IMG/VR virus record: IMGVR_UViG_2703718817_000011
Origin: a virus
Taxonomy: Duplodnaviria > Heunggongvirae > Uroviricota > Caudoviricetes
Reading direction: 5' to 3' (one strand)
Length of the DNA stretch: 15,650 nt
Shown here piece by piece: positions 1-15,650 of the stretch. The notes under the pieces are model-generated. The model was given only the letters and a program-made list of their open reading frames with translations. It had not been told where the DNA came from and made no database searches. Numbering within the stretch: position 1 is the stretch's first letter; each line of letters starts with the position of its first letter. The position numbers were made by a program, and so were the translations under genes.

Positions 1-165
1 ATGGCAAAGCCGATCATCACGCTCAATGGCCTAAAAATCGTCATTATGTTGGGAATGCTGGTCATTATTCTCTGCGGTATCCGTTTTGCCGCCGAGATCA
101 TCGTGCCGTTTATTCTCGCATTATTTATTGCTGTTATATATAACTTATCCCGCATAGTGCATTGA
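1..165 (+). pseudogene. tqsA: Truncated 5' fragment of AI-2 exporter gene tqsA (ydgG), interrupted by the inserted element
   Basis: ORF at nt 1 translates [46 protein letters not shown], which matches the TqsA N-terminus from memory; it then diverges (YNLSRIVH) and stops at 163-165 instead of continuing about 340 codons. Confidence 0.55.
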
Positions 166-210
166 TTTAATTAAGCAATTTTCACTGAGAAAGTGCCAAA
201 ATTCGCAAAA

Positions 211-234
211 TGACTACACCAGTGACTACACCGT
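211..234. repeat. Tandem direct repeat, 2 x TGACTACACC on a 12-bp period, about 70 bp inside the left junction
   Basis: tgactacaccag / tgactacaccgt at 211-222 and 223-234, read directly. Confidence 0.5.
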
Positions 235-620
235 TCGGTGCACTGTATGAAACAACGTGGAACAAATAGGCACAAGAAATATAAAGGCGGGTAATTTTAA
301 GGAGGCGTTGCTGTCGATATGGGGATCCCCATAACGGGGCTACCGGATTTTTTTTCCGGTTAACCTTTAATCAGCCAGGTGGGTTTTACATACCCTTGAT
401 CACCGTAATGATGATCCAGATGTGCACCTTTTCCACCAATGGCGGAAAAGCTCCAACCGTAACGATGATCGCTATGGTTGCCTCGATGGTCTGCGTGGTC
501 ATTATGACCATTCAGCCAGTGACCTTAATCAGAATTTTTCGCTAAAAAATGACGTTGGCCACGTCATCCGGAAAGCACAAAATCACGTCGATTTTTAATG
601 AACGGTTAAACCGTCTTTTT

Positions 621-660: not shown

Positions 661-769
661 AGGTGGTGCTCATTCTGCCCGACCGCGCATTTTTGCGCTA
701 TCGGGAATATAAAACAGTTACCGCCGTCAGCTACCCAGCTCAGAATTGAGCCGCCTTTTAATCAACAAG

Positions 770-7443: not shown

Positions 7444-7620
7444 GCGGCAAACACTCAACCGTTTTTCATAAGGAAATCAGCAATCGCACCGATCGTTTTC
7501 CCGCCTGGTAATGAATATTGGCGGGCACATTAACAGGCGGGAAAGTGGCCCCAGCGTCCTGGCACCACGGGCGAGAATAATCATGATTCAGTTCGGGTAA
7601 AATATGCCGATCCGCTCAGT

Positions 7621-7650
7621 GAACAACGTGGAACAACCACGAACAAATAA
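7621..7650 (-). repeat. Three helically phased TTGTTC repeats upstream of the packaging operon
   Basis: Plus strand gaacaacgtg gaacaaccac gaacaaataa; minus strand reads TTGTTC at a 10-bp period; related to the repeats at 251-270 and 14341-14390. Confidence 0.5.
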
Positions 7651-7653
7651 TTT

Positions 7654-8950: not shown

Positions 8951-9155
8951 TCCCCACCTATACCCACTTTTACTCCCCACTTTTCACAATTCCCCATCTC
9001 GTTAAAGGCGTGGGATTTGTAATTTTTATCATGCTGTTTCATAAGGATTTTTTTGCTCCCCACTTTTTGGGATGTATACAGGTCAAAAAGTGGGGGATTG
9101 TGTTTAAATTTTGTTAAATTCCCCATACCCACCACTTTTGCCACCCACTTTTTAC
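8951..9155. repeat. Putative replication origin: CCCCACTTTT-type iterons flanking an AT-rich segment
   Basis: At least six copies of CCACTTTT in both orientations (about 8965, 8977, 9060, 9084 inverted, 9133, 9146) around an AT-rich stretch at 9011-9056, immediately 3' of the replication gene. Confidence 0.5.
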
Positions 9156-11757: not shown

Positions 11758-12307
11758 GGCGCACCTCCTGACGAATACGGGCGGCAAATACAGCAACACA
11801 ACCGGACGGGCAACGGTTACGCGCTTCGCGTTCCGTCCAGGCGGTTACGTGGATGATTTGATGGTCTGACGCGCCAAAGGCAATAAAGCGCCAGATAAAG
11901 GCTGTTTGAGAATGTACGAGGGCAGGGGTAGTAGCCATGTTGGCAGCCTCCTCAGTGTGGTTAAGATAACCGCCACGCAAAAGGCTAATTTCGCTGGTGG
12001 CGGACTGTACAGGGTTAGCCTTACCGGACACTGAAGAAACCGGCGCGGATTGCTCCGCCCCCGTACAGCCCACCATTGATAAGGTGTGACTATGCGGCAC
12101 AAAAAAACACGCGGGACGCGTGCTGTGCGCTTCAGTTGTTTTCAGGAGGCTAATCCCGACACCCGTTTTATGAGGTGCGCGGGAATCATAGCTATTTTCG
12201 ACACTGGCGATCAACTGGTTTTTTTCTCCGATATTCAGGGCCAGAAAACGCCACACAAAGGCAGTTTGTGTGTGTACAAGGTGTGGTATATGATTTACAG
12301 CAACCAT
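11750..12307 (-). CDS. Icd-like (P4 host cell division inhibitor-like) protein with tandem duplicated domain and internal start
   Basis: ATG 12307 with an AGGAG SD; two copies of an LVH(T/S)QTAF(V/I)WRF segment; second in-frame ATG at 11938 has its own GAGGAGG SD; Icd-like call from recollection of P4-like island proteins. Confidence 0.5.
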   Translation of the reverse strand: MVAVNHIPHLVHTQTAFVWRFLALNIGEKNQLIASVENSYDSRAPHKTGVGISLLKTTEAHSTRPACFFVPHSHTLSMVGCTGAEQSAPVSSVSGKANPVQSATSEISLLRGGYLNHTEEAANMATTPALVHSQTAFIWRFIAFGASDHQIIHVTAWTEREARNRCPSGCVAVFAARIRQEVRHD

Positions 12308-12398
12308 AACGGCTCCTAGTTTACGTTGTTGGTTAGAAGCCCTGCGAGTGGTAACGACACTTGCGGGGCTTTGTCTTTTCATCGATTACCTTGATAAA

Positions 12399-12487
12399 GG
12401 TGTCAGCCACTATATTAGTAACGGGTGTCAGCCACGTCAATAGTGTTTTTCCGTTTTCTTGTGTGTATACTGTCAGCCACCTAATAA
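12399..12487. promoter_or_regulatory. Divergent promoter/operator region with three direct repeats of GGTGTCAGCCAC
   Basis: Repeats at 12399-12410, 12424-12435 and 12470-12480; minus-strand TTGACG-17nt-TAATAT (12435-12440 and 12412-12417) with a repeat in the spacer; plus-strand TATACT (12466-12471) or TTGTGT-17nt-TAATAA. Confidence 0.45.
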
Positions 12488-12501
12488 CGAGGAAATCAGA
12501 T

Positions 12502-12681
12502 ATGGCAACAAAAGCAGTTAATGCAAAATCCAAAAAGCTTGAGGCTCGAGTACCACACGCAATAGCTGATGCTGTAGAAAATTTAAAGGAAGATGGCGAA
12601 AGTACAGGGCAATTTATCGTTTCGGCACTTGAAGGCGAGATCAAACGCCGCCAGCGCCGCAAGGCCAAAGAATCAGAATAA
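12502..12681 (+). CDS. Ribbon-helix-helix (CopG/Arc-like) DNA-binding protein, 59 aa
   Basis: ATG 12502 with a GGAA SD; predicted beta-strand/helix/helix layout (KLEARVPHAIADAVENLKEDGESTGQFIVSALEGEIKRR); divergent from the replication operon. Confidence 0.55.
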   Translation: MATKAVNAKSKKLEARVPHAIADAVENLKEDGESTGQFIVSALEGEIKRRQRRKAKESE

Positions 12682-12738
12682 TCACTATCAGCGCCGTGGT
12701 GTGAGGTACTACGGCGCATTGCTTTACAGGGCAGTATC

Positions 12739-12966
12739 ATGACCAACAACACACTATCACCAATACAAGACACGCAAACGCAAGATGATGAATTCATCCG
12801 GCAAAGGCAGTCAGAAGCCTGCGCCAGACTTGAGGAAGAACTAACCAGAACAAAAATACCACCACCAGCGCCGCGCTTAGTGCCACCAGAAAAATTTGCC
12901 CTTGAAGATTTTGTCGATAAATACCCACGGCGGCTTAAATCCGGCAAAAACCGACCGCCAGGATGA
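12739..12966 (+). CDS. Small protein of unknown function (75 aa), partner of the upstream RHH gene
   Basis: ATG 12739 follows the conserved 44-nt hairpin element; paralogous to 13423..13626. Confidence 0.45.
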   Translation: MTNNTLSPIQDTQTQDDEFIRQRQSEACARLEEELTRTKIPPPAPRLVPPEKFALEDFVDKYPRRLKSGKNRPPG

Positions 12967-13084
12967 GTGCACAAAACCGAACTATGAAACGGATTATTCC
13001 GTTTCCGGGGCGTTTGTGTGTGTATAAAGAGTAAGCTATGCTCTTTTATAGCCATAATCGTTCCTCAATTAATGGTTTGGTTAG

Positions 13085-13128
13085 ACGCCCCGTATGTGTT
13101 CCCATCACTGCGGGGCGTTGTTTTTTGT
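13085..13128 (+). terminator. Intrinsic terminator after the first RHH module
   Basis: 8-bp GC-rich stem ACGCCCCG / CGGGGCGT followed by TGTTTTTTG. Confidence 0.5.
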
Positions 13129-13185
13129 GCTAGTTGTGTGTAATGTGTATATACACATAAACACATTATATGGGGTGTAATTGAC

Positions 13186-13365
13186 GTGTCAACACACAAA
13201 AATGAAAGGCGTGGTAATCCTCCTTTCCAGTTCCGTTTAGATCCTGACTTACGGGAAAAGATGGAAAAAGCACAACAACAAGACGGTGATGACTCTTTAG
13301 CTGCTTGGATAAAACGAATAATCCGAAAAGAATTACAGCAACGCGGTATTGAACCCAAAGAATAA
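13186..13365 (+). CDS. Arc-like ribbon-helix-helix protein, about 59 aa (start uncertain, GTG proposed)
   Basis: Not in the ORF track (below 60 aa with a non-ATG start); hand translation gives VSTHKNERRGNPPFQFRLDPDLREKMEKAQQQDGDDSLAAWIKRIIRKELQQRGIEPKE, resembling P22 Arc; GGGGTG SD-like 8 nt upstream. Confidence 0.5.
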   Translation: MSTHKNERRGNPPFQFRLDPDLREKMEKAQQQDGDDSLAAWIKRIIRKELQQRGIEPKE

Positions 13366-13422
13366 AAAACATCAGCGCCGTGGCGTGAGGAACTCCGGCG
13401 CATTGCTTTACAGGTACACACA

Positions 13423-13626
13423 ATGACCAATAAAGAATCAACCAATACACCATCGCAAAAAACGAACAGAGAGCACGAAAATATGGCGCTCGAGCATGAA
13501 TCAGAAAGATTCGCTCCATGCGCTTTTGTCCTTGATGAGTTTCTAAAAAAATATTCACGTTCTGAACGGATGAAAATGGCAGCACAATACGGCCCCAACA
13601 AGCAAGGTAATTGCCCACCAGCCTGA
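13423..13626 (+). CDS. Small protein of unknown function (67 aa), paralogue of 12739..12966
   Basis: ATG 13423 follows the second copy of the 44-nt element; both proteins start MTN and share a C-terminal F(A/V)L(E/D)(D/E)F..KY.R motif. Confidence 0.45.
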   Translation: MTNKESTNTPSQKTNREHENMALEHESERFAPCAFVLDEFLKKYSRSERMKMAAQYGPNKQGNCPPA

Positions 13627-13699
13627 TAGCGGCTATCATTCCCGTGCTTATGTTTGGGATCACATACACATAAGGCGCAGCAGGTTAATTGTTCAGAAA

Positions 13700-13728
13700 G
13701 GCGGCTCCATATCGGGGCCGCTTTTTTT
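13700..13728 (+). terminator. Intrinsic terminator after the second RHH module
   Basis: GCGGC / GCCGC stem followed by seven T. Confidence 0.5.
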
Positions 13729-13869
13729 ATGCCTGAAAAACCCCAATTTTGTTGTTTTTCAGTTTCACCAGGGCGAACGAATCCCCGCCCACGTTCGGGC
13801 GCATATTCAATCTTCATAGTTATATCTCTGTATTAGTGGATGTGTGGCGACTGTGTGCCGCCAGTCTTT

Positions 13870-14058
13870 TTAGTGAACTGCCTTGCAGCTATCCTTCCAG
13901 GCCAAAACCTCAGATAAAGACCAGCCAACAGAACGCCCACCAAGTTTACGACGTGATGGGAATTGTCCGGCCTTTTCCAGGCGGTAGCGGCATGAGCGGC
14001 TAAGGCCTGTTAGCTTTTCGCATTCTTTTTCACGTATAAACCGATCAGTGCTTAACAC
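13870..14058 (-). CDS. alpA: AlpA-family phage regulatory protein (excisionase/transcriptional regulator-like)
   Basis: 62 aa, apparent GTG start with an AAGGGGG SD; winged-helix excisionase-like sequence (LTGLSRSCRYRLEKAGQFP ... GWSLSEVLAW); downstream of and co-directional with int. Confidence 0.78.
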   Translation of the reverse strand: MLSTDRFIREKECEKLTGLSRSCRYRLEKAGQFPSRRKLGGRSVGWSLSEVLAWKDSCKAVH

Positions 14059-14219
14059 TATTGCCCCCTTTCGTTTCTTAAAGAGTTATTTCGTGTTCTA
14101 TTGCGTTGGGATGTGTCTGATTGTGTCAGGATGATTCAGAGTTGGCAAATGTTGGTGTCGCATGGTTTACAGAAAGAGGAATAATCAGGATAAAATCATT
14201 TAAATTCATGTTAATACAA

Positions 14220-14249
14220 AGGCATAAAATCTTGTTTTATGCCTTTTTT
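14220..14249 (+). terminator. Strong stem-loop plus T-tract in the int-alpA intergenic region
   Basis: 10-bp stem AGGCATAAAA / TTTTATGCCT, 5-nt loop, then TTTTT; could act bidirectionally to end int transcription. Confidence 0.45.
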
Positions 14250-14340
14250 CGCACACTTTAACGCGTAATTCACTAATGTATAAAAAACCAGCTGAGCATT
14301 AAAAATCAGCAACTTACAAATCTGTATTCTTTTTGGCCTC

Positions 14341-14390
14341 TTGTTCGTGATTGTGTCACGTTGTTGCACATTGTTTCTCGTTGTATCTGT
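14341..14390. repeat. Five helically phased decamers each beginning TTGT
   Basis: ttgttcgtga ttgtgtcacg ttgttgcaca ttgtttctcg ttgtatctgt with an exact 10-bp period, between int and alpA. Confidence 0.55.
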
Positions 14391-14432
14391 GCACTTATCC
14401 AGTATGCGCATACTGAAAAAACACGAAAAAAA

Positions 14433-15650
14433 TTATTTTATTCTGGTTACTGGTAGCGTGGTTACGTTTTCATGTGTTCCCGCCAGTATCTCCAACCGCT
14501 CCACCCACATATCAAGCGCATTGCGTTTCGCATCAATATAGCGGGAATGGTTGTACACGCGTTGCATTCCTGGCATCTGGTGGCCTGTAAGCTGCTCCAC
14601 GACGTGAGGATCAACGCCTAAATCGTTCAGCATGGTTGTAAAGGTGCGCCGGATGTCATGCAATGACCATTGAGGGTGTTTTAGCCTCCTGTGCGCTAAT
14701 CTGCCGTACTGCGATACGCTAGCCTCCTGTTTCACTTCCCCCAGTAATAAGCCCGTGTGCCTGTTCTGGTCCACCAGCCGCGTGACGAACGGCAGGATCG
14801 CTTCCGGTATGGGCCGGAATATTGCAACCTTCGTTTTGCTGTGCTCCTTCGGAACGGTCCATAGCATTTCGGTAAAATCCCACTCGCTGATCTCCGATAA
14901 CCTCAGTTCTACCGTCCTGGCTCCGAAGACAATCAGGAGGCGGATTAACGCGACGTAGTAAGGAGAAAATATTTTTTTATCCAGCGCCTGCAATAACTCG
15001 CCCAGTTCTTTGGTGCTTAAGACACGTTCGCTTATATCCGGTTTTTTCCCAACGTCCGCCACGTTCAGATCATCGAGAACGTTGCTGATTGCAAAGCGCC
15101 GCCTCCGGCAGAACTTAAGCGCCTGCTTGCATGTCTGTAGCACGAATCCGGCAGTAACAGGTGTTCGCTTTGCCACCTGGTCAAAACAGGCCAGCCAGTG
15201 CCGTAGCTCGCATTTATCCAGCGGCATAGCGCCAATGTACTGTATTACGTGATTATTAAGTCGCCTTTTCAGGGCGATATAATCCACGCGGTTTTCCTTT
15301 ACGTACGACTCAAGCCAGTAGGTGAGCGCATCGCCAACCGTTACCGGCTTTAACGCTTCCTGTACGGCGTAATTCATCTCATGGCGTGGATTTTTCCCCT
15401 CCGCCAGCCATGCGCGACACTGGGCGGCTTTTTCCCTGGCTGCTTTCAGGCTCAGATCAGGATAATTTCCCAGCTTAATACGTTCCGGTCGTGTCTCTCT
15501 TCCCGTTCCTGCCCTGTAAGTGAAATACCAGGTTAATTTCCCTGATGTTAAATATTTCACGCTCAGATTTCCGCCATCGCTATAAAACGTGTTTTTCTCC
15601 GCTGGCTTACCATGAAGTTTCCTTAGCAAGGTATCGCTCAGTTTGTTCAT
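14433..15650 (-). CDS. int: Tyrosine-type site-specific integrase (phage/P4-like family)
   Basis: 405-aa ORF whose start codon is the last three bases of the window; C-terminal catalytic signature HDIRRT ... H ... Y and an N-terminal arm-binding-like domain. Confidence 0.9.
   Translation of the reverse strand: MNKLSDTLLRKLHGKPAEKNTFYSDGGNLSVKYLTSGKLTWYFTYRAGTGRETRPERIKLGNYPDLSLKAAREKAAQCRAWLAEGKNPRHEMNYAVQEALKPVTVGDALTYWLESYVKENRVDYIALKRRLNNHVIQYIGAMPLDKCELRHWLACFDQVAKRTPVTAGFVLQTCKQALKFCRRRRFAISNVLDDLNVADVGKKPDISERVLSTKELGELLQALDKKIFSPYYVALIRLLIVFGARTVELRLSEISEWDFTEMLWTVPKEHSKTKVAIFRPIPEAILPFVTRLVDQNRHTGLLLGEVKQEASVSQYGRLAHRRLKHPQWSLHDIRRTFTTMLNDLGVDPHVVEQLTGHQMPGMQRVYNHSRYIDAKRNALDMWVERLEILAGTHENVTTLPVTRIK

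Follow-up and report, generated by a model that had tools for sequence, protein, structure and literature searches.

Five consecutive TTGT-headed decamers, set in exact 10-bp phase between the integrase gene int and alpA, probably form an operator array for AlpA, which would be a dual recombination directionality factor (RDF; excisionase) and transcription regulator. The window, by which the whole analysed stretch of 15,650 nucleotides (15.65 kb) is meant, is nearly a whole cf-PICI (capsid-forming phage-inducible chromosomal island) integrated in E. coli tqsA; a tqsA 5' fragment occupies positions 1-144, and in a twin locus (L002), 99.9% identical to the window, the tqsA 3' fragment lies directly past the integrase gene. 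AlpA is the master switch of Gram-negative PICIs, movers of virulence and defence genes, and a literature search found no paper mapping AlpA sites in any PICI. The reading is built on how the array is laid out and conserved, on its motif recurring at other sites of the island, on an AlpA model folded like an excisionase, and on unit subtypes that change along with the type of AlpA. Most likely, the array is a previously unmapped case of a well-known type of regulatory DNA, that of 186, P2, P4, and KplE1, and is useful rather than surprising.

The island genes relevant to the array all lie on the minus strand and comprise int, alpA, an Ash-like/C4-RNA immunity region, a RepA-type helicase, SSB, and PerC, and a packaging/capsid module of HK97-type capsid, protease, portal, connector, HNH, TerS, and TerL. 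The int-alpA spacer is 374 bp long, is AT-rich (29-41% GC), and is present in 878 of the 5,426 complete E. coli genomes. Read along the minus strand, the int stop is followed by a palindrome, five ACAA-oriented units, a 24-bp spacer, and an IHF-like site, after which come a conserved block, a terminator-like hairpin, the predicted promoter with degenerate units, and alpA. The TTGT units, which read (G/A)AACAA as reverse complement, are called class B here; class A is a tandem doublet of (G/T)TGACTACACC or TTAACTACACC. Coordinates are collected in Table 1.

Table 1. Position and strand, within the window, of the genes and sequence features discussed.
Feature	Position	Strand	Remarks
Putative att core TGCTGTTAT	129..137	.	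common to both tqsA junctions; window 100-160 vs L002 18150-18175
attL-arm class A doublet ATGACTACACC AGTGACTACACC	210..232	+	putative integrase arm-type sites
attL-arm class B array, three phased units	246..277	-	attR arm, outside the window, has four
Late-operon class B array, TTGTTC x3	7599..7648	-	units 7648-7621; plus 2 weak units
alpA	13870..14058	-	62 aa; Phage_AlpA family winged helix, excisionase fold; Pfam PF05930 E=5e-18
alpA promoter-proximal region, degenerate phased decamers	14091..14148	+	TCGT/TTGC/ATGT/TTGT/ATGA at 14091-14131
Bidirectional terminator-like hairpin GGCATAAAA/TTTTATGCC	14221..14249	.	flanked by A run and T run
IHF-like site AATCAGCAACTTA	14304..14316	+	12/13 positions match WATCAANNNNTTR
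Distal class B array: five decamers headed by TTGT, phased at exactly 10 bp	14341..14390	+	inverted vs int/alpA direction
Perfect 16-bp palindrome CAGTATGCGCATACTG	14400..14415	.	clade-specific
int	14433..15650	-	tyrosine integrase; N-terminal Arm-DNA-bind_3 and Phage_integrase domains; RefSeq annotation of twin locus

An earlier note on this DNA had described five consecutive 10-bp-phased TTGT decamers just 3' of the int stop and upstream of alpA. The run itself is borne out by direct reading and by simulation, and its placement by the distances, which are 43 bp from the int stop codon and 283-332 bp to the alpA start. The units read TTGTTCGTGA TTGTGTCACG TTGTTGCACA TTGTTTCTCG TTGTATCTGT, with TTGT starting at 14341, 14351, 14361, 14371, and 14381. 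At periods of 8-12, no other run of a 4-mer in the window reaches five copies, and when the window was simulated 300 times with a first-order Markov model, a run of at least five copies never arose and one of at least four copies arose twice. Tandem Repeats Finder gave a period of 10 with the consensus TTGTTTCACG. A position weight matrix built from 45 distinct TTGT units has the consensus CG-TTGT-TCCACG, the decamer consensus being TTGTTYCACG, and the scores of genuine class B units range from 8.7 to 14.8 bits. When IMG/VR was scanned for TTGT-N6 x5 as such, the hits were mostly simple tandem repeats in unrelated viruses and were uninformative.

Conservation in related elements bears directly on any regulatory role claimed for the repeats. 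The islands compared were variants at four integration sites (tqsA, phoQ/roxA, smrA/abgR, and yifB) and about 120 IMG/VR contigs, and no related island examined lacks the array, which persists as 5 or 6 units at all four sites. Islands of clade 1, the type of the window, always have five units and the palindrome, and those of clade 2, including EcCICFT073, have six units and no palindrome. In nine clade-1 sequences, none of the 20 positions of the TTGT cores is variable, against 12 of 30 in the spacers (Fisher p=0.0014), and one variant has gained exactly one 10-bp unit. Invariant cores, drifting spacers, and exact 10-bp steps together point to selection on both the core and the helical phase.

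The same comparison helps to decide whether the array binds protein at all. Slippage does happen, as the changes in unit number show, but a neutral repeat would not give invariant cores beside drifting spacers. The location inside the probable int 3'UTR, upstream of the terminator hairpin, might suit an RNA element, but no Rfam family matches in the int-alpA spacer, and the units are reused in opposite orientation at the untranscribed att arms. Two 66-codon ORFs overlap the array, but RefSeq annotates neither, and a coding role of the array is excluded since 10-bp indels would frameshift any ORF. Iterons of a replication origin were likewise rejected, as the TTGT units sit at att arms and promoters and candidate iterons lie elsewhere. 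Overall, it is very unlikely that the array is a slippage repeat, an int 3'UTR RNA element, a set of iterons, or a small ORF with no protein-binding role. As for the candidate iterons, three copies of TTTTRCTCCCCACTTTT at 83-85-bp spacing occur at 8968-9152, directly downstream of the RepA-family helicase gene, and these repeats are likely the replication origin of the island.

The palindrome, which the earlier note had described next to the array, exists as a perfect 16-bp sequence, but its part was overrated, since one whole clade keeps the array without it. It is invariant in clade 1 and absent in clade 2, where the sixth decamer aligns to its position, and is therefore not part of the conserved element. 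A single 16-bp palindrome is not significant alone, because 0.27 perfect ones are expected per window and at least one occurs in 23.5% of simulations; the window has three. Exact matches to CAGTATGCGCATACTG in IMG/VR belong to the same island family in 40 of 42 cases, with the other two inside unrelated coding regions, so that an intergenic setting is seen in this island family only and an operator common to the helper phage was rejected. An intrinsic terminator was rejected as well, for A6 follows on the plus strand and GGATAAG on the minus strand, with no T run on either, and the terminator scan made no call at 14400-14415. Of the other perfect palindromes, TATGGGGATCCCCATA lies just inside the attL arm at 318-333, followed by CCGGATTTTTTTTCCGG at 345-362; this region is kept in several related islands and is overlapped by an SD-like TAAGGAGG and a 14-codon ORF. 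The third, ATGTGTATATACACAT, is at 13143-13158.

The motif of the array recurs at the ends of the island and at its late operon. Each att arm consists of a class A doublet, a 14-17 bp spacer, and then 3-4 phased class B decamers; the att core shared by the tqsA junctions is putative, being deduced from the comparison of the two junctions. A 14-mer, ACAACGTGnAACAA, is common to the attL arm, the attR arm, 7621-7650, and, as reverse complement, the array at 14341-14390. Class B arrays of at least three units are found in both arms and in the int-alpA spacer, and in this island type also upstream of the capsid operon, while about 130 kb of flanking host DNA from seven loci has one class B run of at least three units. 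The class A doublet (ACTACACC x2) is found in the att arms only, at exactly 2+2 per island.

The late-operon array, with TTGTTC units at about -35, -45, and -55, has a terminator (7687-7670) on one side and the capsid gene (start 7406) on the other. Its last unit forms the -35 hexamer, and a -10-like TATTTT (7604-7599) comes after a 16-nt spacer. In about 30 cf-PICI contigs with this arrangement, the hexamers are fixed and the spacer is variable, and such a layout would be expected of a promoter that depends on an activator sitting over its -35.

The earlier note had also named related phased repeats at 251-270, 621-660, and 7621-7650 and proposed one regulator for all of them. The repeats at 252-281 and 7623-7652 do carry the same motif, on the other strand and in three units each, so that the motif is shared at three of the four named sites. 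The stretch at 619-660 has a different motif, TGTCAC x4. The motif search that the note suggested, with a position weight matrix built from the decamers, recovers the att-arm and late arrays and does not score the TGTCAC repeats. The latter are four phased decamers, TTGTCACGGT GTGTCACTGG TTGTCACTCT CCGTCACGAT, found only in islands with this HK97/P27-TerS/HNH packaging module; in the twin locus, an extra 143 bp lies just right of them (around window 685-724), and they may be a TerS-binding or cos/pac region.

The presence of the motif on both att arms raises the question of whether the integrase itself, through its Arm-DNA-bind_3 domain, binds the TTGT decamers as arm-type sites, with the int-distal copy as an extra Int platform, e.g., to let int regulate itself or to keep Int close to its gene, and the ACTACACC doublets as AlpA sites. 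Units on both arms are indeed the pattern of arm-type sites, whereas RDF sites of the classical kind (lambda, KplE1) occupy a single arm, and phased direct repeats are also seen in lambda P'1-3. However, sites of the integrase arm domain should be confined to att and covary with Int. This is the case for the ACTACACC doublets, whose four half-sites per attP correspond to an Int tetramer, but not for the TTGT units, which also occur at the capsid promoter (7617-7648) and near alpA (14341-14390), where an integrase has no known role. Int proteins with ...SVKYLTSGK... pair with GTGACTACACC (GTGAC...) and those with ...SVRHSTSGL... with TTAACTACACC (TTAAC...) in 16 of 16 distinct contexts, KYLTSGK/RHSTSGL being the predicted DNA-contacting strands of the arm domain, with the caveat that gene and sites are physically linked. 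The TTGT subtype does not follow this Int arm motif. Since they are att-confined and track the arm domain, the doublets are the better candidates for integrase arm sites, which leaves the TTGT units for another protein. In helper-embedded PICIs (HE-PICIs), the attP has a doubled tgTGTATTGCa motif once per arm, and its four half-sites could serve an integrase tetramer (Tommasini et al., 2023; PMC10111431). The ACTACACC doublets resemble it in being tandem, with a 12-bp period, co-oriented, once per arm, and at a comparable distance from the core; the counterpart is thus class A and not the TTGT array, and no phased-decamer array is described there (PMC10111431). Tommasini et al. left the binder of their doubled motif open, which gives the integrase some room as binder of the TTGT decamers, but we regard this as improbable.

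AlpA is the preferred candidate for that other protein. The element would be expected to encode a small winged-helix protein, and AlpA is one. Its AF2 model (pLDDT 87) shows a strand-helix-helix-wing-helix domain whose best PDB matches are excisionases, 8c3t (GIsul2 excisionase, TM 0.83/0.90), 8dgl, 4j2n, and 1z4h, a set with RdfS, Pukovnik Xis, and TorI in it, and PHROGs places AlpA in the class 'excisionase and transcriptional regulator'. RDF operators are direct repeats one helical turn apart that are weak per site and are bound cooperatively with DNA bending (PMC7498355, PMC2951348, PMC11963761). Where such an operator would have at least three head-to-tail repeats at this spacing, the array has five and its relatives 5-6, and class B units occur in the attL arm (3 units) and the attR arm (4 units), each time beside a ACTACACC doublet. 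A Vis/Cox-type operator bound by AlpA, as the earlier note had suggested, therefore finds support in the anatomy, the sharing with the att arms, the winged-helix AlpA, and the covariation described below, and loses only the repeats at 621-660 and the palindrome.

A second island lineage (group 2), with an Int 75% identical and an AlpA 60-66% identical to those of group 1, keeps the arm architecture, with units of TTGTTCG instead of TTGTnnC. The 58 units of group 1 carry C at position 7 in 38 cases and G in 12; among the 19 units of group 2, the counts are 3 for C and 13 for G (p=7e-5). EcCICFT073 combines the RHSTSGL arm motif of the group 2 lineage with a group-1 AlpA and group-1 units, which indicates that the unit subtype follows AlpA and not the Int arm motif. 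This apparent covariation of motif and AlpA is confounded by the linkage of int, alpA, and the sites. At the position homologous to the array, group 2 has a different decamer, AATATC x3-4, and its TTGTTCG units are nearer to alpA. In this lineage, a phased decamer GAATAAATCG TAGAATATCG GAAAATATCT GCAAATATCT follows a hairpin in L257 (about 1655-1700) and also in L229-L251, and the same loci have three CGAAC units 110-150 bp upstream of alpA.

No TTGT array was found with AlpA homologues of other genera (60-65% identity). These loci (L009-L015) were rejected as a source of co-varying arrays because their layout differs, with an extra ORF and a hairpin abutting alpA. The alpA start codon in Kosakonia, Enterobacter, Phytobacter, Buttiauxella, Erwinia, and Hafnia is abutted by a conserved hairpin of terminator-like form (GCCCTCG...CGAGGGC and a T run), 20-60 bp upstream of the gene; in L009, L010, L012, and L013, four of the seven loci, CGAAC occurs twice in the loop, at a distance of 10 bp. 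An extra ORF of 260-320 aa lies between int and alpA in L010-L013 and L015, and L014 is cut off upstream.

A binder other than AlpA or Int, such as a helper-phage product (the alpA inducer), a host nucleoid protein, PerC, or the Arc-like repressor, is unlikely but deserves consideration. Helper phages turn on alpA transcription, and excisionase cross-talk between PICI and helper is on record; however, lambda Xis was rejected as a reader of the units, since its X1 and X2 sites score at most 2.2 bits against 8.7-14.8 for real units. The AT-rich spacer might attract a nucleoid protein, as H-NS binds the alpA promoter in Shewanella, but a host or helper factor leaves the change of subtype with AlpA type unexplained, and the location at the att arms calls for an element-encoded recombination factor. 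Among the proteins of the island, PerC (absent from L001 and L006) and the Arc-like repressor (absent from L005 and L007) were discarded because both genes are missing from some islands that keep all arrays, and AlpA is the only helix-turn-helix protein in all array-carrying islands.

Published experiments with the relative EcCICFT073 bear on AlpA as the binder. Its AlpA switches on the promoter of its own gene, and overexpression triggers excision and replication (Fillol-Salom et al.; PMC6092414), while a Pint-lacZ fusion was unchanged by AlpA (PMC6092414). Mapping of the published primers places the AlpA-responsive PalpA-lacZ fragment at L004 16939-17394, the whole int-alpA spacer, so that it contains the six-unit array; this result fits the AlpA-operator hypothesis. 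The unresponsive Pint fragment corresponds to L004 18053-18899, the attR arm with four class B units, and is either mild evidence against an AlpA operator or a case of arm occupancy without effect on Pint. In Vibrio PICMI, AlpA behaves as an excision factor.

The region between the array and alpA contains several further elements. The IHF-like site matches its consensus at 12 of 13 positions in the window and in clade 1, and its clade 2 homologue, at the corresponding place, matches exactly; across both strands of the window, the IHF consensus has a single exact match. The hairpin is the strongest in the RNA fold, is conserved in the alignment, and separates the array from the alpA promoter region. 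A minus-strand sigma-70 alpA promoter is predicted, with -35 TTGCCA at 14148-14143 and extended -10 CACAAT at 14125-14120, and the degenerate units at 14091-14131 overlap its -10 and 5'UTR. Between the predicted -35 and the first distal unit lie about 200 bp: of 47 distinct spacers, 38 have 198 bp here, and most others 199-202 bp. The promoter-proximal spacer (14091-14140) shows exact 10-bp indels, being 10 bp shorter in L003, a further 10 bp shorter in L141, and 10 bp longer, as (GGGTT)n, in L005, a pattern consistent with a second, degenerate decamer array near the alpA promoter.

Promoter functions of the array itself were also considered. A lambda CII-type site is formed by two TTGC repeats flanking a weak -35, with the -10 at a fixed distance. 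Such a site (TTGC-N6-TTGC straddling the -35) was rejected here, as the motif is TTGT in 5-6 copies, the sole plus-strand hexamer at the right distance is TATGCG, without the -7 T, and clade 2 has no counterpart. A plus-strand AlpA-dependent promoter running antisense into int (TTGTAT, 16 nt, TATGCG) was rejected for the same flawed -10; its geometry parallels the late promoter, and clade 2 again lacks a counterpart. A minus-strand promoter between the array and the hairpin was not found, with no conserved hexamers by eye and none in the promoter scan. Antitermination of the Pseudomonas AlpA type was set aside too, because that AlpA is far larger, carries an RNAP-binding part at its N-terminus, and reads GGGACG, and is no counterpart of the 62-residue protein.

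We infer from the repeat geometry that one AlpA monomer would bind each TTGTTYCACG-like unit, head to tail and one helical turn apart, and that the monomers would form a cooperative, DNA-bending filament. At the att arms, such a filament beside the ACTACACC integrase arm sites may shape the excisive intasome. At the capsid operon, AlpA would activate transcription from a weak promoter whose -35 is at the same time the last unit, and at the alpA promoter it would meet the degenerate units overlying the promoter. The int-distal array and the adjacent IHF-like site may constitute a high-cooperativity element of alpA autoregulation, which would fill as AlpA rises after helper-phage induction and help to lock the island into the excision/replication programme. 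As counterpoints, the array runs opposite to those of the arms and the late promoter, and the terminator hairpin stands between it and alpA. The sign of its effect on alpA may be either: the EcCICFT073 data indicate activation, yet the overlap of the proximal units with the predicted -10 predicts repression (at high AlpA, as with Apl and Vis). Possible ways for the array to act are looping via an IHF bend, relief of H-NS silencing, or a titration/threshold role.

One of the closest parallels is coliphage 186, whose Apl operators number 7 at pR-pL and 5 at attP (PMC7498355). Like AlpA as proposed here, Apl is a small RDF doubling as a transcription regulator, with operators of 5-7 direct repeats 10-11 bp apart, one motif serving att and a regulatory region beside the gene of the RDF itself, and low specificity per unit with conserved phase (PMC7498355). 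In contrast, Apl stands apart from other RDFs in sequence and acts as a repressor of convergent promoters, whereas the EcCICFT073 AlpA is a reported activator; moreover, the array described here lies at a distance from the predicted promoter, behind a hairpin and inverted, and its units are on both att arms. P4 Vis is said, in work by Cali et al. in 2004 and Polo et al. in 1996, to regulate late promoters, to be needed for excision, and to bind in the stretch from int to the att core. Vis belongs to a satellite and is a homologue of the AlpA family, the homology being noted in PMC6092414, but P4 differs in gene order and regulatory circuit, and the Vis boxes are two and on one arm. The proposed AlpA filament may resemble those of P2 Cox and lambda Xis (the X1-X1.5-X2 micro-filament) in head-to-tail cooperative binding one turn apart and in DNA bending, although their motifs differ and these proteins are encoded by helper phages and not by the satellite. 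P2 Cox activates the satellite promoter P4 PLL from an upstream box array. To our knowledge, P4 has no 5-6-unit array downstream of int. In KplE1, TorI has five sites on attL, of which three 8-bp sites 2 bp apart give a 10-bp period with the core GTTCG (PMC2951348). TorI shares the excisionase winged-helix fold and is a structural match to AlpA, and its core resembles TTGTTCG; sequence similarity between TorI and the window AlpA is undetectable, and, unlike the class B arrays, TorI sites are on one arm only and repress intS.

The analysis yields a testable candidate operator code, TTGTTYCACG at 10-bp phase, a full attP architecture with a candidate doubled integrase arm site and a putative AlpA array per arm, and a candidate AlpA-dependent late promoter in capsid-forming PICIs. 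Possible uses are the dissection of induction, the engineering of PICI-based delivery vehicles, and the recognition of islands by their regulatory DNA. A bolder proposal, which we hold to be conceivable though doubtful, is that a single 62-residue AlpA runs the whole switch with one decamer code, through excision at the arms, direct late-gene activation via the -35 unit, and bistable alpA autoactivation via the array and its IHF site as a cooperative threshold or loop. That an excisionase-like protein of the helper phage also reads the arrays, and would then be the inducer of Gram-negative PICIs, has only a slight chance of being right.

Beyond alpA, the region 12333-13817 has two long minus-strand ORFs (240 and 250 aa) without Pfam or PHROG match, and small plus-strand genes annotated by RefSeq with matches (12502-12678, phrog_949; 13186-13362, Arc-like repressor; 13423-13623, phrog_21027), so that the region is better read as a plus-strand operon converging on alpA. 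A direct repeat, GGTGTCAGCCAC x2, 25 bp apart at 12399-12444, lies in the divergent region between the Ash/C4 module and this small-gene operon and is a possible operator. At 11993-12178 on the minus strand, Rfam matches above the gathering score were obtained for C4 antisense RNA (75 bits) and isrK (62 bits). They fall in a 362-bp stretch (11862-12223) that is absent from the otherwise 99.9% identical twin L002 and that looks like a P4/P1-type RNA immunity module overlapping the Ash-like ORF.
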